Below, piece by piece: positions 12,789 to 30,761 of a stretch of DNA of 31,670 bases (within the stretch, counting starts at the first letter, position 1; every line of letters starts with the position of its first letter). This DNA is from a virus (taxonomy: Duplodnaviria; Heunggongvirae; Uroviricota; Caudoviricetes). The translations under genes and the position numbers were made by a program. The stretch spans positions 1 to 31,670 of IMG/VR virus record IMGVR_UViG_649989948_000010, one strand, 5' to 3'. Under the pieces are notes generated by a model. It was given only the letters and a program-made list of their open reading frames with translations, searched no databases and had not been told where the DNA came from.

Positions 12789-13373
12789 ATAAACTCCTGA
12801 ATCAAGCGCCGCGCCGATTTTTTTTCCTCGCGCGTGCGCACACGCGTGCGTGTTAATAATTATTAAAATAAACAAATTACTTCCCAGAACAGGTTTTTAT
12901 AAACCTGAACTGAACGAACGAAGTGAGTGAAGTTCACCTCGAACGAAGTGAGAGGTTGTCTTTTCAGGTAATACTCTCCCAGGGAGGTGAGTACAAAATT
13001 TCCTCACCAACCTGGTCGTTTCATAACCTGAAAAGTTATGACCTAAGTCTACTGCCAGCTTAGGCTTGGGAAGTTATGGATGACAGCACCCCAGAACCGA
13101 GATCTTCCCACACTTTATGAAGGGGAGTACTGGATTCAACCTCTCGAAACACCCCAGACTCGACAATCATAAAGTGACCCTTGTCTCTGCTCACTTTGGT
13201 TCCCCCTTCCCCAACCCCTAAACGGTGCCGGTTCTACGCTGGTAGTGAGCTTTTTTAAACCTGACGCCAGTGACGCTTACCCCCACCCATCAGGTCGAGC
13301 CTCCAATCTACGACTGGAAACTATCAGATCTTAGCACTTACAATTCACTTTATGAATAGTTTGTACTTATCTA

Positions 13374-13628
13374 TCATTTCGATTGATTATTTTTTCGACC
13401 ATGTAGTTGAACATTCAAGGCAAACACCTCGTTGATCAACTCACCTAAAAGCTGTTCAACAAGTTCGCGATGCTCCCCAAGATGCAAGCACTTAATTGCC
13501 CATTCGTACAAGTTGAAAGCCTGCTCACGATCTTTCATCATTTCACGAGCCTGGGCCAGAAAATCGCTCTCTACGAGCGCAACGACATTAGTCGGGTATG
13601 ACATGTTGGTTTCCTTAAAGTGGTTCAT
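13374..13628 (-). CDS. Hypothetical protein (84 aa)
   Basis: ORF in operon context; no family recognised. Confidence 0.4.
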   Translation of the reverse strand: MNHFKETNMSYPTNVVALVESDFLAQAREMMKDREQAFNLYEWAIKCLHLGEHRELVEQLLGELINEVFALNVQLHGRKNNQSK

Positions 13629-13710
13629 AAAATCGATTTTAAAGCGTCTGGGAAGGGGTTCTAGTGGATTCTGTAGTGGTGTTCAGGTCTGGGAGTCTCT
13701 GATATAAAAC

Positions 13711-13769
13711 AGCCTGCTTCCGTATATTAATAATTAATATGTAGTTATTTATATATACAGAAGCAGGCT
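13711..13769 (-). terminator. 10-bp perfect inverted repeat (AGCCTGCTTC/GAAGCAGGCT) enclosing a 39-nt AT-rich loop, downstream of the methylase gene
   Basis: Stem read directly; followed on the minus strand by GTTTTAT; loop contains TATAAATA on the minus strand. Confidence 0.4.
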
Positions 13770-13790
13770 AATTACAGACGCCAGAACAAA

Positions 13791-14384
13791 CTAAGCAGCC
13801 TTCTTTGATGGTCTTTTTTTCCTGATCACATTCGCAGGATCATACCCTCCCAGACTTTTCATGACGTCCAAAGGGATCTTGCTTATAGAGTGCCCAGCGT
13901 CCTGACAGAATCCTCGAAAAACAACGAGCATACTGCCACCTGGGTTGATGTTTACTTCTACCTGACCCAGATTTACGTCAGGCTCGACAAACGCTACGCG
14001 GCCACCAGACAGAATAATCGTCTCATTCGCACACTCTGTTGCACGCTCATACCACTTTGTATCTAGGGATTGAGGAATTAGCATCACTGTTGTAACTCCA
14101 CGAGCCTGCTCACGTATAGCCGCATCAATCCAGGGGGAGATTTTGGAGTAGGGTGGATTGAGGAAGGCAATTGTACCTGGCTGTCCCCATTCAGATTTCA
14201 AAGCATCACGCTCAACGCCTATGAAATTAGGCAGCTTTGCATTGTCCTTGTTGCAGGCAACGTCAACATCAAATGTCACTCCAAGATAACGTTGAATGGC
14301 AGAAAACAGCCAGTCAGGTGTTCTCCAGAGGTCACGAAGAGAGTTGTCGCGCTTTCGCTGTTTGATTTTTTCGGCTGCAATCAT
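13791..14384 (-). CDS. Phage-type DNA N6-adenine methyltransferase (Dam-like, orphan)
   Basis: 197 aa with NPPY motif (LNPPYS); size and layout typical of phage orphan Dam-family methylases. Confidence 0.7.
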   Translation of the reverse strand: MIAAEKIKQRKRDNSLRDLWRTPDWLFSAIQRYLGVTFDVDVACNKDNAKLPNFIGVERDALKSEWGQPGTIAFLNPPYSKISPWIDAAIREQARGVTTVMLIPQSLDTKWYERATECANETIILSGGRVAFVEPDVNLGQVEVNINPGGSMLVVFRGFCQDAGHSISKIPLDVMKSLGGYDPANVIRKKRPSKKAA

Positions 14385-14461
14385 CTTCTTTCTCGATAGG
14401 TAAGTATATACCTATTTTTGCATTTGATTTTATGTCTGGCAATCAAATAAAACGCGCCAGA

Positions 14462-14499
14462 AATGCAAACGAGAAGCTCTCTGGCGCGTTTTTGTGGTG
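14462..14499. terminator. Bidirectional intrinsic terminator
   Basis: 10-bp stem ACGCGCCAGA/TCTGGCGCGT, 18-nt loop, A-run upstream and T-run downstream. Confidence 0.5.
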
Positions 14500-14567
14500 C
14501 TGGGTATGTGATTGGCTTACCCAGTACTATAAAGCTCTCTGTGGGCTTTATTTTAAGTAGGGGAACG

Positions 14568-15377
14568 TCATCCAATAGTGTACTCCGCGACAAACTTCTT
14601 AACGATCGGTGATTCTTCGTTCAATGTTAGATTTCCACCGTCTCTAACGGCAATTCCTGTCGCTGGAAATACAGCCATCATTTGCCCAGCCTGAGTTGAC
14701 GCAGTGTTAAGCGGATACGGTTTTTCTGGATTGCTCATTAAAGCAATCTTAATACTATTACTTGTAGCCTTCTTTTCTGTGAGAAGGTGTCTCATGGAAA
14801 TTACCGTGTAAACACTAATATCTGGACCTCCGCTAAACCAATTAAGAAGGTTTAATATCTTATCCTTTGCTTTGACAGGCGCGTTATCGTAAGCGTCTAA
14901 GAAAATATCTTTTTCTAAGCCCGCTTTATTGAAAAACGAATCATCTTTATCACTTAAAGTAAAACGAGGACCTCTTGCAGTACGCGCTTTTTTATTTGTA
15001 TTGCTATCATTTGACTGTTGAACTTTTAATTCATCATTAACCTCAACACACTCTTCAACCTCAATAAATCCCAATTGTTCTGGCTCGTTTTCGGCAGCTT
15101 CAACACTTTCAGCGTTAATTACGTTTATAGGCTCATGCGCTAACTCCAACTCATTTAAAGCAGAGCTGAAATCACCTGCTTTTTCTTCATTGAACAGTTC
15201 TTCGGCAACATCATCAGAACTCATGGCTACGCCAGCATCTAGGCCGAGCAGCAGATCGTCAATATCATCAGTATTTTCAACCTGTGCAGCTTTTTTTACT
15301 GGTTCATCAAGTGATTGCAACATGGCTGTCAGCTCGTCCAGATCATCATTTGTCATTACATTTTCAACCGAACTCAT
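14568..15377 (-). CDS. Hypothetical protein (269 aa) with strongly acidic N-terminal half
   Basis: GGAGA RBS; N-terminal ~120 aa rich in D/E with repeated DDLDEL-like motifs; C-terminal domain unrecognised. Confidence 0.5.
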   Translation of the reverse strand: MSSVENVMTNDDLDELTAMLQSLDEPVKKAAQVENTDDIDDLLLGLDAGVAMSSDDVAEELFNEEKAGDFSSALNELELAHEPINVINAESVEAAENEPEQLGFIEVEECVEVNDELKVQQSNDSNTNKKARTARGPRFTLSDKDDSFFNKAGLEKDIFLDAYDNAPVKAKDKILNLLNWFSGGPDISVYTVISMRHLLTEKKATSNSIKIALMSNPEKPYPLNTASTQAGQMMAVFPATGIAVRDGGNLTLNEESPIVKKFVAEYTIG

Positions 15378-15500
15378 GTAAGTCTCCTTCTGTTTGGTTA
15401 CATTTGCGTTTCGATGGCTGCATTTTGACTAAACCTATCAGGCGGAAAAGTATTAAATACAGGCAGAAAATGATTGAAAGGCGACTGTTCTTTAAAAAAA

Positions 15501-15527
15501 GCCTACTTTAAACTTTTTAAAGTAGGC
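15501..15527. terminator. Bidirectional intrinsic terminator after the exonuclease gene
   Basis: 12-bp stem GCCTACTTTAAA/TTTAAAGTAGGC, 3-nt loop, flanked by A7 and T-rich runs. Confidence 0.55.
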
Positions 15528-15534
15528 TTTTGTT

Positions 15535-16083
15535 TTACACAATTTCAGAGGGTAATTTAAAAAATCCGTACTTATTACGTGCCTTAAAGAAGCATTGCAT
15601 CATTAAGTTTGTGTCATATAAGGCACTATGTGCTTTGGCATGATCGTATATAAAGCCAAGAGAGAAGGCCAACTCTTCAAGGCGGGGACGTTTACCGTCT
15701 TCTGTGGCCCACAGGGAAAATAGAGTGTCAATCAATGGGATGTCTGGAAGCGAAAAACCGTAACTTTTCAGCTCATGCCTAATAAACGGAATATCGAACG
15801 CTTCGCCGTTGTGGGCTATCCAAATATCGGAAGAAGAGAGATACGAAGCGACAGATGAAGCGTGATCGGCTAGTAACGGCTCGGCGGCTAAATCTTCAAG
15901 ACTGATGCCGTGTACCGCTTGCGCTTTCGGATCGATACTGCGACGCGGGTTGAACCGCATTACAAAACTATCAACCATTGTCTGTGTCTCAATTTCGTAC
16001 TTCACCATTGCGATTTCAATGATTTTATGGCCTGAGAGGAAATCAAGACCTGTTGATTCAATGTCCACCCCTGTAGCAATCAC
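15535..16083 (-). CDS. DnaQ-like 3'-5' exonuclease (DEDDh family)
   Basis: Exo I motif VDIESTG near N-terminus, Exo III motif HSALYD; GTG start overlapping the upstream stop (GTGA). Confidence 0.7.
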   Translation of the reverse strand: MIATGVDIESTGLDFLSGHKIIEIAMVKYEIETQTMVDSFVMRFNPRRSIDPKAQAVHGISLEDLAAEPLLADHASSVASYLSSSDIWIAHNGEAFDIPFIRHELKSYGFSLPDIPLIDTLFSLWATEDGKRPRLEELAFSLGFIYDHAKAHSALYDTNLMMQCFFKARNKYGFFKLPSEIV

Positions 16084-16874
16084 TTTTTATCTCCTTTTAC
16101 TGGTCGTTTGGACGGTGTGAAGATGGCAGCTTCAACATCCCACCCCCTCAAAATTCGCTGCGAGATAATGGTCGCAGTCAAGCCAACCTCTCTAGCCCAT
16201 TCGGTAATTCGCTGAGTTCTGCCGCGACACTCGATCAGACGCTTACTATCTCGGTTGGCATACGTGTCGACGCTGGCGTTAAGCGCGCGATCTAATGGCC
16301 ACCCTTTCTTGATTCGATAGTGAAGAGTTGATGTCTGAATCTCGGCTCTTTTAGCCCATTGTGAGAGAGTCAGCTTTTCCCCCTTATGCTCCAAAATTAA
16401 GTTTGAACGCGTGTTATTGGCCTGTTCTTCAAAAGTCGCCCATCTGCAATTTTCAGGTTCGTAGTCACCATTCACATCTTTGCGATCAAGAGACATCCCC
16501 TCTGGTCGCTCTCCCATGTCAGCATAAAAGTTTTCAAATATTTGCCACCGCTCGCAGACTTTGATACCTCGGCCGCCATACCACTTATAGGCGTGATGGG
16601 TTGGTTTTTCACATCGTTCCCGCATACCCAGCCATATACGATAAATTGGCGTTTTACTCATACCATGAGGATTTACGCTACGGCGATGTGCGTTGTAGAC
16701 ACAGCCACACGATATTGTCGCCCCGTGATTTAGCTTCCCGTAACTAACCAGGCAGGTGTTGCCGCAATCGCAGATGCAATCCCAAAGTCGCCCTTGTTTG
16801 TTTGAAATACCGGAATATTTAAGTGCAACCAACTTTCCAAAACGTTTACCTGTTATGTCTACCGGTTGTCCCAT
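16080..16874 (-). CDS. Putative homing-endonuclease-like DNA-binding protein
   Basis: 264 aa; Cys cluster (CICDCG...CGC), YRIWLGMRERC...YGGRGIKVCERW motif, then two HTH-like repeats; AAGGAG RBS. Confidence 0.4.
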   Translation of the reverse strand: MGQPVDITGKRFGKLVALKYSGISNKQGRLWDCICDCGNTCLVSYGKLNHGATISCGCVYNAHRRSVNPHGMSKTPIYRIWLGMRERCEKPTHHAYKWYGGRGIKVCERWQIFENFYADMGERPEGMSLDRKDVNGDYEPENCRWATFEEQANNTRSNLILEHKGEKLTLSQWAKRAEIQTSTLHYRIKKGWPLDRALNASVDTYANRDSKRLIECRGRTQRITEWAREVGLTATIISQRILRGWDVEAAIFTPSKRPVKGDKK

Positions 16875-16883
16875 TACTACTCC

Positions 16884-17303
16884 TTACAACTTCTTAGCGC
16901 CCTTAAGTAGTGCGCTACGTACAAATTGAGCCGCTTTTTTCAAAGTTTCTTCACTGGTTTCACAGACAACCGGATCTTTCCACTTACCTGACGCCGTGTT
17001 GAGAATGTTGATTTGGTTGCTATCCAGACAAACAGAGACGTAAAGCACCGTGCCACCAGCCAGCATCAAATGCATAGGAAACAGAGGCTTTTTACTGTCT
17101 TCACTGAACTGAGACATGGCGATGTTAATGGCTTCACCCACTTGTGTACCAACAAGCCCCTGCGCAGTTTCGAATATGGCACGAATAGCCAGACGAGCCT
17201 CTCGATCGCTCATAAGCGACCGGGAATGTTCGTCCGCTACACGAATCAAAGCCTCTGTTGTTTTCCGATCCAGTTCATCTTCAAGCAACATTTCACTAAA
17301 CAT
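16884..17303 (-). CDS. Hypothetical protein (139 aa)
   Basis: AAGGA RBS; stop abuts the next start. Confidence 0.45.
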   Translation of the reverse strand: MFSEMLLEDELDRKTTEALIRVADEHSRSLMSDREARLAIRAIFETAQGLVGTQVGEAINIAMSQFSEDSKKPLFPMHLMLAGGTVLYVSVCLDSNQINILNTASGKWKDPVVCETSEETLKKAAQFVRSALLKGAKKL

Positions 17304-17364
17304 TTTTTATCCTTAACCCATTTTGAGAGTTTTATTGTCGCAATGTCGAAGAGGCGAACAATTT

Positions 17365-18009
17365 CTAATGAACGGTCACTCGGCCACAGAACCGGTTTTC
17401 TATCTTTTCTACAGCGTTATCTAGCATTCTCATCACTGATCTGGCTCTTGCTTCAACTGTGCGATACCGGTTGGAAACGACGAAGGTTTGCAGATCTCCC
17501 CTTTGCGGATGCAGGTGAATTTTTGTCAGTTCCCCGCACATCAACGCATCAATACGAGCGACATACAGACGGTCTAATGATGCTCGTTGTGACCGCAAGT
17601 AATCTCGCTCTGAGAGAGCGACCCCCGGGCGTAGGCCAGCAATGGCGTTAAAGTTTGAAATAGCAGTTTTGTGGCAAAACTTTTCGATATCGAGGGCTAA
17701 CTCAATACACCGATCTTCATTTGTATGGCCGACCAAATCCAACGTGTAGGCCATAACATCAGCAGGTGTGCGATCGATAACAAAGCCTTCAGCACCACGC
17801 GTAAGTAGCTCTATATGCTTTGCTATTTCCATTTGAATCTGAAGCCGCTCATATAGAGGCATAGAATCACCTACTCGAACACCGAGGCGGCTCATCAAAC
17901 TTCCGACACCAGCATCCACGTAAGGGATTCCGTAATGTTTGTCGATATATTTAGCCAGGGTTGTTTTCCCACTGCCCTGAGCACCAGTGATCCCAATCCG
18001 GTAATCCAT
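17365..18009 (-). CDS. P-loop kinase, probable deoxynucleoside monophosphate kinase
   Basis: Walker A GAQGSGKTT; sits in the dNTP-synthesis operon with 1-nt overlap to the DHFR stop. Confidence 0.5.
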   Translation of the reverse strand: MDYRIGITGAQGSGKTTLAKYIDKHYGIPYVDAGVGSLMSRLGVRVGDSMPLYERLQIQMEIAKHIELLTRGAEGFVIDRTPADVMAYTLDLVGHTNEDRCIELALDIEKFCHKTAISNFNAIAGLRPGVALSERDYLRSQRASLDRLYVARIDALMCGELTKIHLHPQRGDLQTFVVSNRYRTVEARARSVMRMLDNAVEKIENRFCGRVTVH

Positions 18010-18485
18010 TACGACCTTCTGTATACGATCTGCGAAAAGCCAGGCTCTTCCTCGCTGGCTCGTTGGGTATAAGCTGTTTCAACAGGCACAAAGCCTAAAT
18101 TACGCATCATGCTTGCCGGGAAGAATGCATCGGCGTTTGGCACATCAACGCCGATGTGGGAGAGCCAAATCTCTTCAACATGCGGCATGAATAGCGAGTA
18201 AATTTGTTCCCCGCCAATCACCCACACAGGCTCTGGTAATCGCAACACATCATCCACACCAGCAGGGTAGAATCCATTTGGTACAAAGCCATGAGAGCGC
18301 GTCAAAACGAGGTTATGACGCTCTGGAAGAGGGCGTTTGAGACTTTCCATCGTTTTACGCCCCATAACGACAGTGGCGTTTTTGGTGAGTCTCTTAAATA
18401 GCTTCAGATCGGTAGAACAACGCCAGGGCAGTTCATTCGCTATGCCGATCTCATAGTTACGGCCAACAGCAGCTATCATCTTCAT
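18009..18485 (-). CDS. frd: Dihydrofolate reductase
   Basis: 158 aa; DHFR pattern (MIAAVGRNYEIG...LPW, VVMGRKT.ESL) and typical size. Confidence 0.85.
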   Translation of the reverse strand: MKMIAAVGRNYEIGIANELPWRCSTDLKLFKRLTKNATVVMGRKTMESLKRPLPERHNLVLTRSHGFVPNGFYPAGVDDVLRLPEPVWVIGGEQIYSLFMPHVEEIWLSHIGVDVPNADAFFPASMMRNLGFVPVETAYTQRASEEEPGFSQIVYRRS

Positions 18486-18895
18486 TTGCTCACCTCATAG
18501 ATGACCGGTCTATGATGAGAGTCAGCTAAAGCGGCACGGAGTCGAGGATCGTGCACCAGCGCAGCGATAAGCAGATCGCCTTTATGCTCCGCTAATGTGC
18601 GCTTAATATGCTTCTCATAACTAGTGCTATTCGGTACGAGGTGAAGCCAGTCGTAATCAACACCAAAATCTTTCAGCCATCGTTTAGTGGGCGCTTCAAG
18701 AGTTTCAGAGCGGCTACTGATAAGCACCACTTCAGCCCCTGAGCGAGCAAAACCACGCAACATACGGCTGGTGGGGAAAATGAGTTCATCACCGGCAATG
18801 AATTGGCCTGCATCCGAGTCAGATACAGATTTACGATGGCTGGTATTTGCCAGCACACCTTCAATTTCGCATAAGACATACATACCTCTTGCCAT
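18482..18895 (-). CDS. Hypothetical protein, possibly a HAD-like phosphatase or nucleotidase
   Basis: Start reset to ATG at 18895 (MARGMYVLCEIEGVLA), 2 nt after the thyA stop; motif resembles HAD motif I but with Glu in place of both Asp. Confidence 0.3.
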   Translation of the reverse strand: MARGMYVLCEIEGVLANTSHRKSVSDSDAGQFIAGDELIFPTSRMLRGFARSGAEVVLISSRSETLEAPTKRWLKDFGVDYDWLHLVPNSTSYEKHIKRTLAEHKGDLLIAALVHDPRLRAALADSHHRPVIYEVSK

Positions 18896-18896
18896 A

Positions 18897-20000
18897 TCAC
18901 ACCGCCACTGGAACCTTGATCCACGGTAGAGGGGCATAGCCAAGAATAAGAATCTCGTCCCATTTGAAATCATCCAGCTCAGACCATTCATTAGGGAATA
19001 TAACGACCGGATCTGAATGCTCTGGAGCCTGTCGTTGCATTAGCTCACACACACCTTCCATGTGGTTGTTGTACAAATGCACGTCAAAGCCAAAATGCAC
19101 AAATGCACCGGCCATGTGACCCGTAATCTTCGCGAGAAAATGAGTGAGAATGCCATAGCCAGCAATATTGAATGGCATACCAACAAAAGTGTCTACGCTA
19201 CGCTGTACGAGGCAGGAGTTGAGGATGCGTTTGGGGATTCCAAGTTCATCCAGTTCAGCTTCAGTAACACTGCCGTCTATCTCCAGATCGTATAGCATCT
19301 TGGTGTAGATAGACTCGTAACCGAGGCGACTGTGTTGAAGACCAATGTCAGTTGCCATCGTTAAACGGGTTTCAAAATCCAGCTCACGACTCCACAAAGA
19401 GAAGACAAAGTGGCAAGGTGGCAGTTTCATATCCTCAAGCTCGCCTACGTTCCATGCGTTAAGCATGATGCGACGATCGGTAGGGTTCATGCGCAGTGTA
19501 TCGACAATACGCTGTAGCTGATCGATTTCACGGGACAGCACTACGCGATCTTCACTGATACCCAGGTATCCCTCGACTTTGTACCCGCGTTCACGGAAAG
19601 TAGCGATCTTGCTCAGATATTCACTATGGCTCACGATGCGGGTATCTTCCCATCGACGCCACTGCTTACCGTAAACCGGCCCCAAATCGCCATTCTCATC
19701 GGCCCATGCATCCCAAATCTTAACGCCGTTATCCTTGAGAAATTGGATGTTGCCCGTGCCTTTCAGATACCACTCAAGTTCGACAAGCAGTGGCTTAAGA
19801 TTTACCGCCTTTCCAGAAATAAGCGGCACAGTCCCACCAGTAAGCATGTAGTAAGAGGGAACGTAACAGGTGCTTAAAGTACCAGTGCCTGTGCGATCAT
19901 CAGCCTGCACGCCGCTTTTAAGCACCGTCTCAATAACTTTTGCATACGATGCGTTTGTTACCTGACCGTTCGTATGCTCACGATTCAAAAGGAGTGACAC
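18897..20000 (-). CDS. thyA: Thymidylate synthase (ThyA family, long form with insertions)
   Basis: Motifs DRTGTGT, GDLGPVYGKQWR, active-site PCH, DxHxYxNH; start placed at in-frame GTG with GAGG RBS (ORF-track start at 20027 is also GTG). Confidence 0.85.
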   Translation of the reverse strand: MSLLLNREHTNGQVTNASYAKVIETVLKSGVQADDRTGTGTLSTCYVPSYYMLTGGTVPLISGKAVNLKPLLVELEWYLKGTGNIQFLKDNGVKIWDAWADENGDLGPVYGKQWRRWEDTRIVSHSEYLSKIATFRERGYKVEGYLGISEDRVVLSREIDQLQRIVDTLRMNPTDRRIMLNAWNVGELEDMKLPPCHFVFSLWSRELDFETRLTMATDIGLQHSRLGYESIYTKMLYDLEIDGSVTEAELDELGIPKRILNSCLVQRSVDTFVGMPFNIAGYGILTHFLAKITGHMAGAFVHFGFDVHLYNNHMEGVCELMQRQAPEHSDPVVIFPNEWSELDDFKWDEILILGYAPLPWIKVPVAV

Positions 20001-20171
20001 AAAAACCTCACAAAGATAAGTAACCACTTATTCATTGCGTGAGTTTACATTTATTGAGAGAACAAGACCAGACAGATAAAAAAATGGTGGCCATAGGCCA
20101 CCAAAAACGAATAGTTGTTTCAGAAATTTAACGCGCCAGCGCAATATACACAGATAGATAACTACCTACAA

Positions 20172-21041
20172 TTATTTTTTGATCATTCCGTACATTGCTG
20201 AGGCTTTAGCTTGCTCAACAAAGGAGGATAAATCGACATCACTATAGGTTGGAGACTTCAGAATCTTTCCATCGGAAATTCGAAAACCGATCATCTTATC
20301 GGTGCCATCAGCATGGCGAAATCCCAGGTCAGAAGAGTCGTATTTGCAGTTGGCCACAGCATGGCGACGCTCTTCGGCATCTGCAGGCCATAATTTTGTC
20401 ATGTTGGACCGATGAATTTCGCCAACCAGCTCGACGACATTGATACCGAGAAAATCAGCCAGTCGATAAGTCATCATGCACGCCACATAGATTTTGTTCA
20501 TTACACGGCGCAGTTCCTGAATCAGCTCAGAATCCTTAACAGTCTTCTTCTCAAGTTTATCTGCCAGCTCTTCGAGCATACATGACGCCTCACGAGCTTC
20601 CTGAAATGGCATTGCCATATCATCGAAAACAGTGTTACCAGGCACAAAAATTGTCTGCATAAAGCGATCAATGCTCTGTTCCTGCGTGTAATAAGTCATG
20701 CCGGTAGAAATACCACCTTTGATGGCGACCATCGTACCAACACCAACGTATAAAAAGTCGGCCATTGCATCCAGCAGTTGCTCAATATCCCCATTCATTG
20801 CGGCTGGAATACCTTCCACTACAGCTTCTTCATGAATCAGGCTTGCACGGAGACGAAGCAGCTCTGGTGTCGGCATAACGCGTCTCGGATGCTGGAAGAG
20901 TTCATGAAACTGATCGACCATCTTGTAAATACTTTCAGTGGCTACACCATGGCCTTCATGCAACTCATATGGTTCTGGCTTAAATCCAATGAGTCGATCG
21001 GTGGCAAGTTTCAGGTGGTCAGTCAGTTTGGTAAAGTTCAT
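20172..21041 (-). CDS. Hypothetical protein, possibly a MazG-like nucleotide pyrophosphohydrolase
   Basis: 289 aa; perfect AAGGAG RBS; C-terminal region (LGINVVELVGEIHRSNMTKL...DGK) resembles all-alpha NTP-PPase motifs. Confidence 0.4.
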   Translation of the reverse strand: MNFTKLTDHLKLATDRLIGFKPEPYELHEGHGVATESIYKMVDQFHELFQHPRRVMPTPELLRLRASLIHEEAVVEGIPAAMNGDIEQLLDAMADFLYVGVGTMVAIKGGISTGMTYYTQEQSIDRFMQTIFVPGNTVFDDMAMPFQEAREASCMLEELADKLEKKTVKDSELIQELRRVMNKIYVACMMTYRLADFLGINVVELVGEIHRSNMTKLWPADAEERRHAVANCKYDSSDLGFRHADGTDKMIGFRISDGKILKSPTYSDVDLSSFVEQAKASAMYGMIKK

Positions 21042-21118
21042 GCTAGTTTTGCTCCTTCTTAATTCTTGTGATCCATTGTGGCCCAGCGTTGCCAGGCCAC
21101 ATAATGCTTTGTATCGGT

Positions 21119-22261
21119 TTACAGGTCTGCAAACTGGCTTAGAGAAGCCTTATCCACGGTAGAATCGATCTGACCTACCAGATATGTGCTTTGCTCTGCC
21201 TCTTGTGGTGCAATTTGCAGTGTGTCGGTTAACAACCACTTGTTCATCCAGACCAGCGGATCAGTGGTAACTTCTGGAAATAAAGCCTTCAGGCCAAGAC
21301 GATTCATAGCCAGATTGGTGCGGTATTTTACATAGGTTTTGAGAATATCCGCGTTTAAACCAATCATCGAACCGTCTTTGAAGAGATAGTCTGCCCAGTT
21401 CATTTCTTGTTCGGCGACTGATTTCATGGTGTCGTAAATGACGTTTTCTTCATCAGCAGCAATCTCTTTCCACAATAAACCTTCGCGACCGGTACGCATG
21501 AAGCGGATCATGCGTTCAGTTCCTTCGCAATGCAGAGCTTCATCACGGGCAATAAAGCGCATAATTTTGGTGTTACCCTCAAGCAACTTCCGTTCACCAA
21601 AGGCAAACGTACATGCAAAACTTACGTAGAAACGGATCGCCTCAAGCGCATTAATGGACACCAACGTGCGGAAAAGCTGACGATGCAAAGGGTATGGCTC
21701 CCAGCCATATTCATTTACGTACAGACGCTCAAATTCCTTCTCACCTAACGACTGGCGCTCGCAGGTCATCCCATAAAGCCTGTCATATTCAGCAGAGATA
21801 CTGATCGCTCGGTTGATGATTTCTTCATCCGTAACAATACCGTCAAAAACAATGCTCGGATCGTCCACCATGCCACGAATAATGTGGGTGTAGCTGCGGC
21901 TATGGATAGTCTCAGAGAAAGACCATGTTTCAACCCACGTTTCCAGTTCAGGAATAGAGATAAGCGGCAGCAGCGTTGCATTTGGGCTACGTCCCTGAAC
22001 TGAATCGAGTAACGTTTGATAACGGAGATTGCTCAGAAAAATGTGACGTTCGTGGTCCCGCAGCTTCGTGTTGAAGTCGATACGATCGCTCGAAATATCA
22101 ACTTCTTCCGGCCGCCAGAAGAAAGACAATTGACGTTCAATCAACTTTTCAAAATCACGGTATTTTTGCTGATCGTAACGTGCCACGTTGACAGATTGTC
22201 CGAGGAACATAGGCTCTTTGGTTGCATCATTAGCACCCAAACGGAACGTTGAATATGACAT
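21119..22261 (-). CDS. nrdB: Ribonucleotide reductase class Ia small subunit
   Basis: 380 aa; collinear with E. coli NrdB ([60 protein letters not shown]); divergent, phage-type. Confidence 0.92.
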
Positions 22262-22292
22262 GTGTTTTTCCTTTTTCTTTTTTGGTGCGTTT

Positions 22293-22305
22293 AAACAAGT
22301 TGTTA
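22293..22305 (-). promoter_or_regulatory. Palindrome-like motif AAACAAGTTGTTA upstream of nrdB
   Basis: Third copy (one mismatch) about 38 nt upstream of the nrdB ATG, with extra half-site at 22313-22324 and the same GTGTTTTTCC leader. Confidence 0.35.
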
Positions 22306-22340
22306 TCTTATGTGTTTAAACAAGGCTTACAAATCAAAGA

Positions 22341-22359
22341 GAAGGTGGGGATATCCCCC
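22341..22359 (-). terminator. Stem-loop between nrdA and nrdB (possible attenuator)
   Basis: GGTGGGG/CCCCACC stem with ATATC loop, directly after the nrdA stop and followed on the minus strand by a T-rich tract. Confidence 0.35.
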
Positions 22360-22367
22360 ACCATATG

Positions 22368-24683
22368 TCAGATTTTGCAGGCTCCGTCGCACTCATCTTC
22401 TGGCTCGACGGCTACAGCTTGCGCCAGTGGATTCTGCGGTTCGTCGTCATCACGTTTTCCTGCACCATCTCTGGTGTTGTGGTAGTAAAGCGTTTTAACT
22501 CCCATCTTGTAGGCGAGAAGCAAATCTGACAGTAGCGTCATCATTGGGACTTTATCGCCTTCAAAGCGAGAAGGGTCATAGTTGGTATTGGCTGAAATAG
22601 CCTGGTCAAAGAACTTCTGGATGATCGCCACCTTTGTCAGATAGCCGCGGTTGTCCGGCATATCCCACAGGTATTCATACTGTTCCTTCAGTTTTTCAAA
22701 CTCAGGCACGACCATCTTAACGATGCCGTCCTTAGAAGATTTCACCGACACCGGGCCACGAGGCGGTTCGATGCCGTTGGTGGAATTAGTGATCTGGCTG
22801 GAAGTCTCGCATGGCATTTGTGCCGTCAGTGTGGAGTTGCGAAGGCCGTATTTTGCAATACGTTCACGCAGTTCTTCCCACGGCATCTTTAACTCAAAGT
22901 TGGTTTCGCCACTTTCGTCTAATGAAGAACGGTAATGGTCGATCGGCAACTGACCAATTGCGTACTTGGTCTGCTCAAACCAGTCACACTCACCTTTTGC
23001 TTCAGCAAGTCGGCAGCTGGCATCAAGAAGGTAATACTGGATAGCTTCGAATGTTTCATGCACCAGTTTATTGCCAGCGGTATCAGAATAACGAACGCCA
23101 TTCTTTGCCAGGTAATAAGCAAAGTTGGTTACACCAATTCCCAAGCTACGACGAGCTTTGGCAGGCACTTCGGCTGCCTCCATCGGATAGTCTTGATAAT
23201 CCAGTAACGAATCCAGTGCAGCAACGGCATAGAACGCCACCTCTTTAAGAGACTCCAGTGAACGGATGGCTCCGAGGTTAAAAGCGGATAAAGTGCATAG
23301 CGCGATCTCACCGTTCGGGTCGTCGGTAAATGCCAGTGGACGGGTGGGTAGGGTGATCTCCATACACAGGTTTGACTGGCGGACAGGTGCAAGAGCAGGA
23401 ATGAAAGCGCCATGCTCATTAATATGATCGACGTTCGCAATATAAATTCGGCCCGTGGACGCTCGTTCCTGCATCAGAGATGAGAACAGCTCAATGGCAG
23501 GTACTGACTTCTTGCGAATTGAATCATCGGCTTCGTATTTATGGTACAGCTTTTCAAACAGCTCCTGGTCTGTGAAGAAGGCTTCGTACATATCAGGCAC
23601 ATCATGCGGGCTGAACAGAGTGATGTTCTCGCTTCTGACGAGTCGACGGTACATTAGACGGTTACTCATGACGCCGTAATCAAGATGGCGAACGCGGTTT
23701 TCATCAATACCACGGTTATTTTTCACCACCAGCAGACTTTCAACTTCAAGATGCCAGATCGGGTAAAACGCTGTTGCTGCGCCACCACGAACACCACCTT
23801 GCGAACAAGATTTAACAGCCGTCTGGAAATGCTTCAGGAATGGAATAACTCCGGTATGGGTGGCTTCACCATTGCGGATCTCGCTGCCCAGCGCACGGAT
23901 ACGGCCAAAACCAATACCAATTCCAGCACGACGTGAAACGTAGTCGATAATTGCGGCTGAAGCTGCACTAATCCCTTTCAGGCTATCGCCAGACTCAATC
24001 AGCACACAACTGGAGAACTGACGGGTTGGAGTACGGACGCCGGCCATGATTGGTGTGGGCAGAGACAGTTTGAACGTACTTGTAACGTCATAGAAACCTT
24101 TGACCATCTCCATACGTGTTTTGCCAGCGCAGTCGTCTTCCCAATTCTGGAACAGACACATGCCTACCAGCATATAGATATGTTGCGGCCCCTCATGAAT
24201 CTCACCAGTAACACGGTTTTGAACGAGGTATTTGCTTTGCAACTGCACCGTAGCTGCATAGCCAAAAAGATCGTCACGTTTCGGCTTAATGTAATTGCCG
24301 AGTTCTTCGATCTCTTCAAACGAATAATGTGTCAGCAAATCCTTGTCATAAACGCCCTTGTTAACGTTCTTGACAATGTGTTGGTAGAAGTTCGGATAGT
24401 CGTAACGACCGAAGGCATCTTTGCGGATTTTAAAAATGTTCAGGCGGGCAGCCACCTGTGAGTAATTTGGTGCTTCTGGTGAGATCAAATCAGCGGCAGA
24501 TTTAACCAAAGCCTCATGCAACTGGCTGGTGGTCATCCCATCAAAAATGCTGGCCGCAGCTCCCATTGCTACAGCGGATGCGCTTACACCACGAATGCCT
24601 TCTACGCCATACATTACGACGCGGTTGTATTTTTCTTCGGATAACGGCTCTGTTTGGCCGTTACGTTTTACGATGCTTATCAT
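22368..24683 (-). CDS. nrdA: Ribonucleotide reductase class Ia large subunit
   Basis: 771 aa; ATP-cone-like N-terminus, C-terminal Tyr pair; collinear with E. coli NrdA. Confidence 0.92.
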   Translation of the reverse strand: MISIVKRNGQTEPLSEEKYNRVVMYGVEGIRGVSASAVAMGAAASIFDGMTTSQLHEALVKSAADLISPEAPNYSQVAARLNIFKIRKDAFGRYDYPNFYQHIVKNVNKGVYDKDLLTHYSFEEIEELGNYIKPKRDDLFGYAATVQLQSKYLVQNRVTGEIHEGPQHIYMLVGMCLFQNWEDDCAGKTRMEMVKGFYDVTSTFKLSLPTPIMAGVRTPTRQFSSCVLIESGDSLKGISAASAAIIDYVSRRAGIGIGFGRIRALGSEIRNGEATHTGVIPFLKHFQTAVKSCSQGGVRGGAATAFYPIWHLEVESLLVVKNNRGIDENRVRHLDYGVMSNRLMYRRLVRSENITLFSPHDVPDMYEAFFTDQELFEKLYHKYEADDSIRKKSVPAIELFSSLMQERASTGRIYIANVDHINEHGAFIPALAPVRQSNLCMEITLPTRPLAFTDDPNGEIALCTLSAFNLGAIRSLESLKEVAFYAVAALDSLLDYQDYPMEAAEVPAKARRSLGIGVTNFAYYLAKNGVRYSDTAGNKLVHETFEAIQYYLLDASCRLAEAKGECDWFEQTKYAIGQLPIDHYRSSLDESGETNFELKMPWEELRERIAKYGLRNSTLTAQMPCETSSQITNSTNGIEPPRGPVSVKSSKDGIVKMVVPEFEKLKEQYEYLWDMPDNRGYLTKVAIIQKFFDQAISANTNYDPSRFEGDKVPMMTLLSDLLLAYKMGVKTLYYHNTRDGAGKRDDDEPQNPLAQAVAVEPEDECDGACKI

Positions 24684-24700
24684 GTATCACCAAATAAAGA

Positions 24701-24722
24701 GGGCCACTAAATATAGTGGCCC
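24701..24722 (-). terminator. Stem-loop between the RuvC-like gene and nrdA
   Basis: 9-bp stem GGGCCACTA/TAGTGGCCC with 4-nt loop, followed on the minus strand by TCTTTATTT just before the nrdA RBS. Confidence 0.4.
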
Positions 24723-24756
24723 ATGTTAATAGATAAGCACTTACCTATCAATGAAA

Positions 24757-25326
24757 TCAAATGAGAGACTTAAGAACATCGCGCACCTGGCGGAACTGAT
24801 CTGTTTGCATACCGGTATGGATGGCAGCCACCGCATCAGCCAAATGTTCGTTTTTGTTCACGAGAACATCCTGTCCAGATTGCTTACGACGCAGCCACGG
24901 TGCTTTAGGGTGTTTTTTCGTAGCCCACTGGATAATCTCTTCTTTCGATGTAGTAAGTTTATTGCCGACAAAATGCTTGATTTCGTTTGGAGTAACCTGG
25001 ATCAATGGCTTATCCACACACGCAAGTACACCGATACAAATACCGTAAGACGTCTGCGAACGAGAGTTTTGGCTCCCAACCGGTAGCTCACAAAAAACCA
25101 TATTTGCCTTATCAATGATTGGCTTCGCAACACGCCATATTTCACTGGCTCGGCGCAGATCGTCACTGTTCACACGAACGGTCTTTTTGTTACTCCCCGC
25201 TTTAGTCTCAACAAGAGTAAGGCCGTGAATCTCAAGTTCGTCCGTCTCAAGGTCTAAAGTGCCCACAGCAAGCCCAAAGTTGCTCATTGAGGGATCAACA
25301 CCAACTACGCTGATTTTTTTACTCAT
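24757..25326 (-). CDS. RuvC-like Holliday junction resolvase
   Basis: 189 aa; N-terminal VVGVDPS (compare RuvC GIDPG), acidic residues at positions expected for the RuvC fold; strong AAGGAG RBS. Confidence 0.55.
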   Translation of the reverse strand: MSKKISVVGVDPSMSNFGLAVGTLDLETDELEIHGLTLVETKAGSNKKTVRVNSDDLRRASEIWRVAKPIIDKANMVFCELPVGSQNSRSQTSYGICIGVLACVDKPLIQVTPNEIKHFVGNKLTTSKEEIIQWATKKHPKAPWLRRKQSGQDVLVNKNEHLADAVAAIHTGMQTDQFRQVRDVLKSLI

Positions 25327-25335
25327 ATAGTCTCC

Positions 25336-26079
25336 TTACCATGTTCCCCATATAGGGTTTTCCAATAATCTCGCCTCCAACGAATTGGCTACTATTGCCG
25401 TTTGCAACGTTGGTTGGGGATAGTTTGCAAAGTCTGAATACTCATTTTCCTGCGTGACACGTTTATCTGCGGCATGTTTAACACCACTTGCTATGAAATG
25501 ACGCATGATGCCCAACAGCCTCCGACTGTCTGCACTATCGTTTGCTAAAACATGAGGGAGCTGAAGTTCGATTTCTACCATTTCTCCATACTTCCCAACA
25601 AACTGTAGTTTGTCCGCACTGTACTTTTTATCCCTCCTTTGGATAAGGAAACCAGTAAAAGCATCACCTGGCGATGCCAAACTATCTACCCGCTTATTGG
25701 CAAGTCGAATAAGGTTCGTGAAAGCCATACAGTGATGCGCACCCATTCCCCCAAAGAACCCTTCGCTATTAATGTTAAGATCTTCAGTTTCATGGGATGC
25801 AATAAACCCAGGCCCGACGTTGGGAAGATATCCCCCCTCAACAAAAGGATTAATCAGGATCGGCGCAATACATCCAGGTGGTAGTGATTTCAAACTTTGC
25901 ATCAATGGCGTCTCGGATATTAGACCAAGCAACGCGGCGAATTGTACTCCGTCAATATTGTTGCTGCCCCACAGAATACGTGGAGCCGCACCATTGGAAG
26001 TATGCCCATTGATCAGTTTTATCGACTGCATCACTGCAAATACCTGCAAAAACTGCGAGCGGCTTAATTTAAACGACAT
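25336..26079 (-). CDS. Hypothetical protein (247 aa)
   Basis: AGAGGGG RBS; lies between the truncated SbcC-like gene and the RuvC-like gene; no family recognised. Confidence 0.5.
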   Translation of the reverse strand: MSFKLSRSQFLQVFAVMQSIKLINGHTSNGAAPRILWGSNNIDGVQFAALLGLISETPLMQSLKSLPPGCIAPILINPFVEGGYLPNVGPGFIASHETEDLNINSEGFFGGMGAHHCMAFTNLIRLANKRVDSLASPGDAFTGFLIQRRDKKYSADKLQFVGKYGEMVEIELQLPHVLANDSADSRRLLGIMRHFIASGVKHAADKRVTQENEYSDFANYPQPTLQTAIVANSLEARLLENPIWGTW

Positions 26080-26396
26080 AGCTGCGCCCCTCTTTAACTT
26101 CCAGCGTAATAGTTTCCCGGAACCATGACTTCATCTCTTTATGGGAGATAATCAGCACAGTACCTCGCTCGCGAGCTTTGGACTCCAGAATACCCATGAG
26201 GCGTTCAAGACCGGCTGTATCGAGTGCATCGTCAATTTCGTCGCCGATAAACAAATCGATGTTTTTACTCGCCCGGTTACTAACCAGATCCTGCAATGCC
26301 AAAGAACACGCAATGCGAACCTTCCGCTTCTCACCACCAGAGAGGGTCTGGAACGACTTACTTGAACCTTTCTTCTGCACACTAATGTTGAATTTG
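26069..26396 (-). pseudogene. 3' fragment of an SbcC/Rad50-like (ABC-type) ATPase gene, truncated by IS66 insertion
   Basis: Encodes only the C-terminal signature LSGGEKRK, Walker B/D-loop LFIGDEIDDALD and H-loop ISHK; reading frame runs into the IS66 left end at 26397. Confidence 0.55.
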
Positions 26397-26482
26397 TGTA
26401 AGCGTAAACTGACCGCCGTATGTAGCCATCAGACGAGAATTGGTAACTTAGACGCCCATCTGATATAGACGGACATCTAAGT

Positions 26483-26908
26483 ATGGAATTACAGGACTGG
26501 CGAAAAGAACCTCGTAAAAACTATTCGAATGAATTCAAACTTCGTATGGTGGAACTGGCATCACAACCTGGAGCTTGTGTTGCACAGATTGCACGTGAAA
26601 ATGGCGTCAATGATAATGTTATTTTCAAATGGCTCAGGCTCTGGCAGAACGAAGGGCGTGTTTCACGGCGTCTTCCGGTAACGACCTCTTCTGACACTGG
26701 CGTTGAATTATTACCTGTAGAAATAACGCCGGATGAGCAGAAAGAACCTGTGGCGGCCATTGCGCCGTCTTTATCCACTTCCACTCAGACCAGAGTCAGT
26801 GCCAGTTCCTGCAAGGTGGAATTCCGTCACGGTAACATGACGCTGGAAAATCCATCGCCAGAGCTGCTCACAGTGTTGATCCGTGAACTGACCGGGAGGG
26901 GAAGATGA
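26483..26908 (+). CDS. IS66-family accessory protein (orfA)
   Basis: 141 aa HTH-like protein; 4-bp overlap with orfB. Confidence 0.85.
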   Translation: MELQDWRKEPRKNYSNEFKLRMVELASQPGACVAQIARENGVNDNVIFKWLRLWQNEGRVSRRLPVTTSSDTGVELLPVEITPDEQKEPVAAIAPSLSTSTQTRVSASSCKVEFRHGNMTLENPSPELLTVLIRELTGRGR

Positions 26909-27255
26909 TCTCACTCCCATCAGGTACCCGTATCTGGCTCGTTGCCGGCGTTACCGATATGCGTAAATCCTTCAACGGACTGGGAGAACAGGTACAACAT
27001 GTGCTGAATGATAATCCCTTCTCCGGTCACCTGTTTATCTTCCGTGGCCGACGGGGTGACACCGTCAAAATTCTTTGGGCTGATGCTGATGGTCTGTGCC
27101 TGTTCACCAAACGCCTGGAGGAAGGCCAGTTTATCTGGCCTGCGGTACGTGACGGCAAGGTATCCATTACCCGCTCGCAACTGGCAATGCTCCTCGATAA
27201 GCTGGACTGGCGTCAGCCAAAAACATCCAGCCGTAACTCACTGACAATGTTGTAA
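26905..27255 (+). CDS. IS66-family accessory protein (orfB)
   Basis: 116 aa; conserved IS66 orfB pattern (LWADADGLCLFTKRLEEGQF). Confidence 0.85.
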   Translation: MISLPSGTRIWLVAGVTDMRKSFNGLGEQVQHVLNDNPFSGHLFIFRGRRGDTVKILWADADGLCLFTKRLEEGQFIWPAVRDGKVSITRSQLAMLLDKLDWRQPKTSSRNSLTML

Positions 27256-27285
27256 AAAACTCCTGACCGCATTATAAAAACGGTC

Positions 27286-28899
27286 ATGAGTCAGAAATAC
27301 CTCATTCGCATCGCAGAGCTGGAAAGGTTGCTCTCTGAGCAGGCTGAAGCCCTCCGTCAGAAAGACCAGCAACTGAGTCTGGTTGAAGAGACGGAAGCCT
27401 TCCTGCGCTCTGCACTGACACGTGCCGAAGAAAAGATCGAAGAAGATGAACGGGAAATAGAACATCTGCGGGCTCAGATAGAAAAACTGCGCCGGATGCT
27501 GTTCGGTACCCGTTCTGAAAAACTGCGTCGTGAAGTTGAACTGGCTGAGGCTCTGCTGAAACAACGTGAACAGGACAGCGATCGTTACAGTGGGCGGGAA
27601 GACGATCCTCAGGTTCCCCGCCAGTTGCGACAGTCGCGCCATCGTCGTCCGTTACCGGCACACCTTCCCCGTGAAATACACCGCCTGGAGCCAGAAGAAA
27701 GCTGTTGCCCGGAGTGTGGCGGTAAGCTGGATTATCTGGGGGAAGTCAGCGCTGAACAGCTGGAACTGGTGAGCAGTGCCCTGAAAGTGATCCGCACAGA
27801 ACGGGTAAAAAAAGCCTGTACAAAATGTGACTGTATTGTTGAAGCACCGGCGCCGTCTCGCCCGATAGAGCGTGGTATCGCGGGCCCCGGATTACTTGCC
27901 CGCGTGTTAACGGGAAAATACTGCGAACATCTGCCACTGTATCGTCAGAGTGAAATCTTTGCCCGCCAGGGTGTCGAACTGAGCCGGGCCTTACTCTCCA
28001 ACTGGGTTGACGCGTGCTGCCAGTTAATGACACCGGTGAATGATGCCCTGTACCGTTATGTAATGAACACCCGCAAGATTCACACTGATGACACACCGGT
28101 AAAGGTACTGGCACCGGGTCAGAAAAAGGCGAAAACAGGGCGTATCTGGACGTATGTCCGGGATGATCGCAATGTGGGTTCGTCATCTCCTCCAGCGGTC
28201 TGGTTCGCGTACTCGCCGAACCGGCAGGGGAAACACCCGGAGCAACACCTCCGCCCCTTCCGGGGTATCCTGCAGGCGGATGCGTTCACAGGTTACGACA
28301 GGTTGTTCAGTGCAGAACGTGAAGGTGGTGCACTGACAGAAGTTGCGTGCTGGGCCCATGCCCGGCGAAAAATCCACGATGTATACATCAGCAGCAAAAG
28401 TGCGACGGCAGAAGAAGCACTGAAGCGAATCAGTGAACTGTACGCCATCGAGGATGAAATACGGGGATTACCGGAGTCAGAGCGTCTTGCCGTCAGGCAG
28501 CAGCGAAGCAAAGTGTTACTGACGTCGCTGCATGAATGGATGGTGGAGAAGAATGGTACGCTGTCGAAAAAATCCAGACTGGGCGAAGCGTTCAGCTATG
28601 TACTGAATCAGTGGGATGCCCTCTGTTATTACAGTGATGACGGTCTGGCGGAGGCGGATAATAATGCTGCGGAAAGAGCGCTTCGTGCAGTCTGTCTCGG
28701 AAAGAAAAACTTTATGTTCTTTGGCAGCGATCACGGCGGCGAGCGTGGAGCACTGTTGTACGGGCTGATCGGCACCTGCCGTCTGAACGGTATCGATCCG
28801 GAAGCGTATCTGCGCCATATCCTGAGCGTACTGCCGGAATGGCCTTCCAACCGAGTTGATGAACTCCTGCCATGGAACGTAGTACTCACCAATAAATAA
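27286..28899 (+). CDS. IS66-family transposase (orfC)
   Basis: 537 aa; coiled-coil N-terminus, CxxC zinc-finger-like region, conserved catalytic core. Confidence 0.85.
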   Translation: MSQKYLIRIAELERLLSEQAEALRQKDQQLSLVEETEAFLRSALTRAEEKIEEDEREIEHLRAQIEKLRRMLFGTRSEKLRREVELAEALLKQREQDSDRYSGREDDPQVPRQLRQSRHRRPLPAHLPREIHRLEPEESCCPECGGKLDYLGEVSAEQLELVSSALKVIRTERVKKACTKCDCIVEAPAPSRPIERGIAGPGLLARVLTGKYCEHLPLYRQSEIFARQGVELSRALLSNWVDACCQLMTPVNDALYRYVMNTRKIHTDDTPVKVLAPGQKKAKTGRIWTYVRDDRNVGSSSPPAVWFAYSPNRQGKHPEQHLRPFRGILQADAFTGYDRLFSAEREGGALTEVACWAHARRKIHDVYISSKSATAEEALKRISELYAIEDEIRGLPESERLAVRQQRSKVLLTSLHEWMVEKNGTLSKKSRLGEAFSYVLNQWDALCYYSDDGLAEADNNAAERALRAVCLGKKNFMFFGSDHGGERGALLYGLIGTCRLNGIDPEAYLRHILSVLPEWPSNRVDELLPWNVVLTNK

Positions 28900-28993
28900 G
28901 CGTCAATACGGTGCTCCGTTGACGCTTACTTCAGGTGCATCCGGTCCCCCTTGTTTTTGATACAAAACACGCCTCACAGACGGGTAATTTTGC

Positions 28994-29002
28994 TTATCCA
29001 CA
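28994..29002 (+). promoter_or_regulatory. DnaA box (TTATCCACA), possible remnant of an IncFII-type plasmid origin
   Basis: Exact DnaA-box consensus in a non-coding stretch upstream of the CPBP-pemI-pemK block; origin assignment is inference. Confidence 0.3.
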
Positions 29003-30760: not shown

Positions 30761-30761
30761 C

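Follow-up and report, generated by a model that had tools for sequence, protein, structure and literature searches.

A nucleotide-metabolism and recombination gene array in a draft contig of Escherichia coli MS 145-7 and its place in an SSU5-type phage-plasmid

Introduction

How does a compact set of phage-type genes for nucleotide metabolism and recombination come to lie between a restriction-modification (R-M) system and what looks like the backbone of an ordinary plasmid? The question is raised by a stretch of viral DNA of 31,670 nt (IMG/VR record IMGVR_UViG_649989948_000010; the whole stretch is called the window below), in which an array of minus-strand genes at 15535-26397 encodes, among others, both subunits of ribonucleotide reductase (NrdA and NrdB), thymidylate synthase (ThyA), dihydrofolate reductase (DHFR), a RuvC-like resolvase and the end of an SbcC-like ATPase. 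An earlier note on this DNA described the array as a phage-type operon captured in a non-phage context. We argue instead that it is the native DNA-metabolism and recombination module of a phage-plasmid of the SSU5 supergroup, with Escherichia phage Cyrano (pLF82) as its nearest relative. We put the probability of this reading at roughly 0.93, a figure that covers the identity of the module and its native context and excludes the separate question of how the right-hand end of the window was joined.

Results

The replicon to which the array belongs

The window is the entire draft contig ADWS01000048.1 (31,670 bp) of the E. coli MS 145-7 draft genome GCA_000179115.1, and its parts can be traced in a finished genome of the same strain. 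Positions 1-28929 are 99.993% identical to the finished plasmid NZ_CP146657.1, and positions 26398-31670 are 100% identical to a second finished plasmid, NZ_CP146658.1 (unnamed2, IncFII). The first of these is 198,406 bp long, with a phage-plasmid part of ~110.7 kb and an IncC conjugative backbone of ~82.6 kb.

The DNA of the module matches 13 phage records, including SSU5 and Cyrano, as well as 703 plasmids in PLSDB, all but 25 of which (678/703) are predicted to be non-mobilizable; the carriers are Klebsiella, Escherichia, Enterobacter, Salmonella, Citrobacter, Yersinia, Cronobacter and others. Identity is 98-99.5% for four Escherichia phage records, ~77.5% for Klebsiella phage-plasmids and 76% for SSU5, the SSU5 and Klebsiella matches extending over 79-87% of the region. 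Cyrano aligns with 97.6-98.8% identity over 1-1672, 8467-15713 and 16879-26397 (18.4 kb), and there the module is flanked by metG/apbC/HumD on one side and by sbcC-sbcD-RepA-RecA-SSB-Pol III alpha on the other. Judged by these alignments, the whole of 1-26397, the type I R-M cassette included, reads as phage-plasmid DNA.

These matches bear out the phage-plasmids that the earlier note had named as an alternative source, and they speak against capture in a non-phage context, with 1-26397 all phage-plasmid backbone. Nor do the two outside neighbours named in the note hold up: the R-M system is an accessory cassette within the phage-plasmid, and on the right the only way into the plasmid backbone leads across an insertion sequence (IS) of 2,532 bp, ISEc23, with at least three identical copies in the strain, by a join that the finished assembly does not reproduce. 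The absence of structural, lysis and integrase genes, also pointed out there, is true within the window, but virion genes lie to the left of the contig, ~18 kb past its end: NZ_CP146657.1 carries terminase, portal, major capsid, tape measure and tail fibre genes at 154,103-179,617. In the finished genome they share a replicon with the module, and the "missing structural module", which was to be looked for elsewhere in the genome, is therefore merely outside the contig, at 154-180 kb of that plasmid. The chance of an assembly chimera, which had been raised as well, is plausibly realized for the last 2.7 kb of the window but not for the module, which is itself free of chimerism. Thus the module appeared orphaned because the draft contig ends before the virion genes and joins a piece of another plasmid through a repeated IS.

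The features of the SSU5 supergroup that we find are collinear homology in the window and, outside it on NZ_CP146657.1, siphovirus structural genes and genes for replication and partition. Specifically, the phage-plasmid part of that replicon has a RepB-family initiator (16745-17959), in a position equivalent to that of RepA in Cyrano, ParB-like genes (149873-151221) and a DnaB-like helicase. The module is already known, being conserved in a common and described phage-plasmid family, and its nucleotide-metabolism block is annotated in published genomes.

Two homopolymers, at window positions 12818 and 15494 (T8 vs T9 and A7 vs A8), are the sole differences between draft and finished sequence in 28.9 kb. 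They look like errors of sequencing chemistry in one of the assemblies, and Cyrano, with T6 and an interrupted A-run at the same places, is uninformative on their lengths.

Gene content of the array

Genes were assigned by profile searches against Pfam and PHROGs, with NCBIfam and PDB sequence searches as a supplement. All genes of the array are on the minus strand:

15535-16083, minus strand: DnaQ-like 3'-5' exonuclease (Pfam RNase_T, E 1e-22; phrog_192); its 5' 370 nt belong to a seemingly imported HNH patch
16080-16874, minus strand: free-standing HNH-family endonuclease gene (phrog_374, E 7e-79)
16884-17303, minus strand: conserved phage-plasmid protein, function unassigned (phrog_5373, E 1e-87)
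17365-18009, minus strand: P-loop kinase-like protein, candidate dNMP kinase (AAA_28, E 3e-10; phrog_2107 thymidylate kinase, E 1e-9)
18009-18485, minus strand: DHFR (Pfam DHFR_1, E 2e-34, full length)
18482-18895, minus strand: HAD/PNKP-phosphatase-like protein, a weak assignment (PF25109, E 1.5e-4, under the Pfam cut-off; phrog_5387, phrog_415 polynucleotide kinase)
18897-20000, minus strand: ThyA with two lineage-specific insertions (Pfam PF00303, E 9e-78)
20172-21041, minus strand: MazG/PRA-PH-like nucleotide pyrophosphohydrolase (PF01503, E 1e-8; phrog_671, E 1e-47)
21119-22261, minus strand: NrdB, class Ia ribonucleotide reductase beta (PF00268, E 5e-46; annotated nrdB in related records)
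22368-24683, minus strand: NrdA, class Ia ribonucleotide reductase alpha with ATP-cone (PF03477, PF00317, PF02867)
24757-25326, minus strand: RuvC-like Holliday-junction resolvase (phrog_159, E 3e-57; RuvC resolvase in the Cyrano annotation)
25336-26079, minus strand: conserved protein, function unassigned, with an 11-nt overlap with the end of sbcC (phrog_2117, E 2e-127)
26069-26397, minus strand: 3' remnant of an sbcC-like gene (329 nt, the C-terminal ~109 codons), cut by ISEc23 (phrog_77, E 1.5e-35)

Pfam and PHROGs agree with the identities that the earlier note had read off the translations (exonuclease, HNH, kinase, DHFR, HAD-like, ThyA, MazG-like, NrdB, NrdA, RuvC-like and SbcC), and its description of SbcC as truncated is accurate, with the last 329 nt left and ISEc23 at the cut. 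The remnant is 100% identical to the final 329 nt of the 1917-nt sbcC of Cyrano and covers the Walker B/D-loop region only, short of a full-length SMC-like ATPase in the window. Several searches returned little. The phrog_5373 protein (16884-17303) had no match in Pfam, NCBIfam or PDB, and the RuvC-like resolvase (24757-25326) none in Pfam; NCBIfam gave no names for the HAD-like, MazG-like, RuvC-like, HNH, phrog_5373 and phrog_2117 proteins, and PDB sequence searches with the kinase-like and HNH proteins gave nothing useful. Against the (d)CMP kinase model the kinase-like protein (17365-18009) scores weakly, with E 3e-6, far under the cut-off of the model.

NrdA and ThyA can be described more closely. 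The window's NrdA is 63.9% identical to the R1 protein of E. coli (PDB 2r1r; 1056 bits), and in this alignment its catalytic and radical-transfer residues are conserved, with SSCVLIE (C225), SNLCxE (N437/C439/E441), ALCTLS (C462), LYY (Y730/Y731) and, at the C-terminus, the Cys pair. The domains of NrdA (ATP-cone, all-alpha and barrel), together with a separate beta subunit in the adjacent gene (PF00268), are those of a class Ia enzyme. Identity to NrdA of T4-like phages and jumbo phages is ~50%. By these comparisons NrdA is nearer to the enterobacterial chromosomal type, but its divergence is much too great for a paralogue from the chromosome of this host. In ThyA the catalytic Cys lies within PCH, where LPPCHFVF aligns with LAPCHAMF of PDB 6auj. 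The protein has 367 aa vs the canonical 264 aa, with insertions at about aa 120-156 and 205-261, and aligns to PDB entries in three blocks; the length of thyA is the same in Cyrano and in the Klebsiella relative.

The successive junctions between the genes listed above are -4, +9, +61, -1, -4, +1, +171, +77, +106, +73, +9 and -11 nt. The array is tightly packed, as junctions that run from an 11-nt overlap to a 171-nt spacer indicate, yet it is split into several blocks and is not one seamless operon. Thus the "compact minus-strand operon" first proposed stands as a tightly packed minus-strand array, but not as a single unit, given spacers of up to 171 nt. A GC-rich hairpin followed by a T-run is found on the minus strand in three of the spacers, upstream of nrdA (24722-24701), between nrdA and nrdB (22362-22344) and between the MazG-like gene and thyA (20103-20085), and these could be terminators or attenuators that divide the array into transcription units. 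A consensus scan of 13000-26500 gave 11 promoter-like sites vs 20.5 expected from shuffled sequence, and 12 terminator-like sites vs 12.3 expected. There is no excess of sites over shuffled sequence, and therefore no statistical support for an operon map.

The HNH endonuclease patch

The HNH gene and the adjoining 5' 370 nt of the exonuclease gene together form a patch of 1.17 kb (15714-16878) whose affinity is not that of its surroundings. Specifically, the patch is 94-99% identical to the Klebsiella phage-plasmid pDD521.1, whereas its flanks are only 41-84% identical to that element; the same flanks are 93-100% identical to Cyrano, from which the HNH gene is absent. The whole patch is present in 112 of 309 PLSDB matches, always as a single copy and always at this locus beside the exonuclease gene. 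Taken together, this looks like the trace left by homing, with co-conversion on one side, between phage-plasmid lineages from different genera. The HNH protein itself is matched by two PHROG HNH profiles (E 7e-79 and 1e-69), while profile and PDB searches found no Pfam HNH domain and no PDB relative in it. By reading of the translation the motif region is LDRKDVNGDYEPENCRWATFEEQANN, with Arg at the position usually taken by the first His.

The left side of the window: backbone and R-M cassette

To the left of the array the window continues as follows:

1-1672, both strands: phage-plasmid backbone with an apbC-like gene (105-1205, plus strand) and a HumD-like S24 peptidase gene (1243-1632, minus strand), 97.8% identical to Cyrano
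1673-8466, plus strand: type I R-M cassette in a variable locus, with hsdM 2335-3897, hsdS 3894-5141 and hsdR 5263-8379 (annotated hsdM/S/R in NZ_CP146657.1)
8467-15534, minus strand: backbone genes downstream of the module, namely TciA/TciB-like genes, RNase HI (12198-12875), Dam methyltransferase (13791-14384) and hypotheticals, 97.6% identical to Cyrano (Pfam RNase_H, Dam)

The R-M system is cargo of the phage-plasmid and not foreign context, because the same cassette recurs between the same flanks in 67 PLSDB records. Among the matches listed, all are plasmids of ~110 kb except the 198-kb MS 145-7 cointegrate; at least one record, NZ_OW849379.1, is found both among those with the cassette and among the matches to the module. 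Cyrano lacks the cassette and has Ea22-like genes at that locus instead. The G+C content is 35% over hsdS (4001-5000) vs 43-50% around it. In related plasmids, a gene annotated as Pol III theta-like lies under the R-M stretch, an annotation not confirmed for the 74-aa open reading frame (ORF) at 1986-2210 in the window.

The NCBIfam models for ApbC (760 bits) and HumD (220 bits) match the two genes at the left end, and both genes are annotated in Cyrano. The S24 peptidase (1243-1632) belongs to the HumD family (UmuD'-like; an NCBIfam equivalog) and borders the variable locus that holds the cassette. The apbC of the phage-plasmid is ~83% identical in DNA to the chromosomal gene, and the gene for methionyl-tRNA synthetase, metG, adjoins it just to the left of the contig. 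A set of 5,426 complete E. coli genomes contains 216 records with DNA at least 90% identical to this apbC copy; taken as a marker, apbC gives a rough idea of how common this phage-plasmid lineage is. Scans of the window for Rfam families and tRNAs gave no matches.

Outside the window, a RecA-like gene of 2,340 nt at NZ_CP146657.1 11089-13428 (Cyrano CYRAN_55) carries the PGAP label LAGLIDADG homing endonuclease, which suggests an intein-containing RecA.

ISEc23 and the right-hand junction

Homology to phage-plasmids ends at 26397, where ISEc23 sits in sbcC, and the window continues with DNA of a different plasmid:

26398-28929, plus strand: ISEc23 (IS66 family; annotated ISEc23), 2,532 bp, with tnpA 26483-26908, tnpB 26905-27255 and the transposase gene 27286-28899, and with the ends GTAAGCG...CGCTTAC
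28930-31670, strand not assigned: IncFII plasmid segment with CPBP/"tir" 29757-30410, pemI 30503-30760, pemK (end at 31094) and the first 143 nt of IS1, 100% identical to NZ_CP146658.1 and many IncFII plasmids

The other part of sbcC, its 5' 1,596 nt, lies at NZ_CP146657.1 20376-21971 and overlaps the 329-nt remnant by an 8-bp target duplication, GAATTTGT. The finished MS 145-7 plasmids contain three copies of ISEc23, all 100% identical, so that the copies are told apart by their 8-bp flanks:

IncFII plasmid copy: left flank TTCAGGTG, right flank TTCAGGTG
198-kb plasmid, first copy of the two at NZ_CP146657.1 21972-24503 and 107129-109660: left flank CTGTAGAA, right flank GAATTTGT
198-kb plasmid, second copy of these two: left flank GAATTTGT, right flank CTGTAGAA
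Window copy: left flank GAATTTGT, right flank TTCAGGTG; a hybrid with no duplication

The IncFII copy, with its 8-bp duplication, is a simple insertion. The two copies of the 198-kb plasmid carry reciprocal 8-bp flanks, and because of this we read NZ_CP146657.1 as a cointegrate in which two direct copies of ISEc23 join a complete phage-plasmid (~110.7 kb) to an IncC backbone (~82.6 kb). The window copy has the three ORFs and the inverted repeats of an IS66-family element, but its flanks do not match, and these non-matching flanks mark it as either recombinant or misjoined. The finished genome links the phage-plasmid flank to IncC and not to IncFII, and the double junction of the window is found in no PLSDB record and in no complete E. 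coli genome (best coverage 86-90%). The draft contig broke 143 nt into the 768-bp IS1, though it had crossed a multi-copy IS of 2.5 kb.

Metagenome contigs with a 103-aa ORF for the sbcC remnant were considered as independent IS insertions and rejected: in these contigs sbcC is intact and is split only by scaffold Ns or contig ends.

Discussion

Alternative explanations

Two other origins of the array have to be weighed against a native module. In one, a phage-type operon was excised from its phage and became the cargo of an ordinary plasmid, between an R-M system and the plasmid backbone and with no virion genes. The 31.7-kb window, with no structural, lysis or integrase genes in it and IncFII DNA beyond the IS, would look just like this. 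But the 26.4 kb before the IS match complete phage-plasmids collinearly, the R-M cassette belongs to the cargo of the phage-plasmid, the structural genes are contiguous on the finished replicon, and the link to IncFII runs through a repeat with unmatched flanks; we therefore consider such an excision very improbable. The other possibility is that nrdAB, thyA and folA are ordinary chromosomal paralogues misplaced on the contig, as might be suggested by the 63.9% identity of NrdA to E. coli R1 (vs ~50% to T4-like phage NrdA) and by an apbC 83% identical in DNA to the chromosomal gene. We regard it as practically negligible: high-identity DNA matches are found only to SSU5-type phages and plasmids, a protein identity of 64% is far from that of a recent chromosomal copy, and the gene order, with interleaved HNH, MazG-like, RuvC-like and SbcC genes, agrees with the phage-plasmid and differs from the chromosome.

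For the right-hand junction the balance is much closer. We favour a repeat-mediated misjoin in the draft as the source of the sbcC-ISEc23-IncFII join, with some reserve, over a real second cointegrate. In the latter case the ISEc23 in sbcC and the ISEc23 next to the IncFII repA would have recombined in the draft culture and fused the phage-plasmid to the IncFII plasmid, so that draft and finished assemblies would represent alternative IS-mediated cointegrates of one phage-plasmid with two conjugative plasmids. Three identical copies of a 2,532-bp element on co-resident replicons would provide the means, the finished genome already holds one such product with reciprocal flanks, the hybrid flanks of the window are precisely those predicted for a cross between the phage-plasmid copy and the IncFII copy, and cointegrates of phage-plasmids are recognized as a class (PMC12977533). 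A literature search for cointegrates of the SSU5 type gave no specific match, cointegrates being treated in general terms only. Against a real junction, the finished assembly of the same strain has a simple IncFII insertion with its duplication intact and joins the phage-plasmid flank to IncC, the junction is absent from all other public complete records (PLSDB and complete E. coli genomes), and a stop inside IS1 after passage through a longer multi-copy IS suggests an arbitrary path through a collapsed repeat. We thus find a real junction possible but doubtful. Somewhat more doubtful again is that both MS 145-7 assemblies are right and the phage-plasmid recombines reversibly with IncC and IncFII in one cell through the three ISEc23 copies. 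If true, this would make a complete temperate phage genome transferable by conjugation ("conduction"), and would link plasmid DNA to a phage replicon.

Some observations also weigh against our own account of the module and of the misjoin. The labels of the kinase-like, HAD-like and MazG-like proteins come from weak or partial profile matches, and the function proposed for this copy of the module is read from gene families. Virions have been demonstrated for Cyrano, whereas the MS 145-7 element has a disrupted sbcC, and the cointegrate, at 198 kb, far exceeds the range of 85-134 kb given for the pSLy3 type discussed below. The element may no longer be able to complete a lytic cycle. As for the misjoin, exactly the junction seen would also arise if identical 2.5-kb IS copies on plasmids in one cell had undergone homologous recombination.

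Proposed function of the module

If the gene families are a guide, a native module of this kind would let the element supply its own dNTPs and DNA processing during lytic or induced replication. NrdAB would convert NDPs to dNDPs, and ThyA would convert dUMP to dTMP, with DHFR regenerating the folate cofactor, while the P-loop kinase-like protein, the MazG-like pyrophosphohydrolase and the HAD-type phosphatase may balance or sanitize the nucleotide pool. The element's own Pol III alpha would have the DnaQ-like exonuclease as its partner, and branched or hairpin intermediates of replication would be substrates of the RuvC-like resolvase and SbcCD. In MS 145-7, ISEc23 entered sbcC with the target duplication GAATTTGT, and in the finished genome identical IS copies tie the phage-plasmid to IncC in the 198-kb cointegrate.

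Meaning

The module is textbook for its family, and SSU5-type phage-plasmids are common. What the locus adds is a caution, namely that a 31.7-kb draft contig can give a native phage-plasmid module the look of orphaned cargo, and that joins across multi-copy IS elements should not be taken as genomic context. MS 145-7 in addition illustrates cleanly how an IS66-family element ties phage-plasmid and conjugative plasmids together. The case bears on gene exchange between phage-plasmids and plasmids, and on whether packaging of such cointegrates is still possible.

Comparison with known systems

Phage T4 carries genes for precursor synthesis and recombination, among them nrdA/nrdB, td, frd, gene 1 for dNMP kinase, and those for the SbcCD-like nuclease gp46/47. 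Like T4-type virulent phages, the element described here encodes a class Ia ribonucleotide reductase, ThyA, DHFR, a candidate kinase, and SbcCD-like and resolvase functions, interspersed with a putative free-standing homing endonuclease gene. The host element, however, is a temperate siphovirus-type phage-plasmid and not a virulent myovirus, and the module in the window has no dCMP hydroxymethylase or DNA-modification pathway. The comparison with the early modules of large virulent phages made in the earlier note holds for function only; NrdA is ~50% identical to T4-like NrdA vs 64% to the enterobacterial chromosomal R1.

IS-mediated plasmid cointegrates provide a second comparison. In the finished MS 145-7 plasmid, the direct pair of ISEc23 copies and their reciprocal 8-bp flanks are of the known kind, the difference being that one of the partners is a phage-plasmid; in the window, the junction pairs the flanks of two replicons in a putative join.

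Of the sets of related phage-plasmids described so far, the SSU5 supergroup is the largest, with the groups SSU5_pHCM2, pKpn, pSLy3 and pMT1 (Pfeifer et al. 2021, PMC7969092). The block nrdA-nrdB-MazG-thyA-DHFR-kinase-exonuclease is conserved in Salmonella phage SSU5 and across the supergroup, the copy in the window differing in being of an E. coli-type lineage. The element probably belongs to the pSLy3 type, which is related to SSU5, is found mainly in E. coli and has a listed size range of 85-134 kb (PMC12977533). The phage-plasmid part, with ~110.7 kb, falls within this range, whereas the IncC cointegrate in which it is embedded has 198,406 bp.

The closest known system is the SSU5-like Cyrano (pLF82 of E. 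coli LF82; OV696614), which is inducible by ciprofloxacin, has virions detected by qPCR and is kept at ~5.5 copies per cell (PMC9928086). Gene order is identical in the two from metG/apbC/HumD through the TciAB-like, RNase H and Dam genes and the array to SbcC. They differ in that the window has a type I R-M cassette in place of the Ea22-like genes of Cyrano, an extra HNH gene next to an exonuclease gene whose 5' end has diverged, and an sbcC interrupted by ISEc23.

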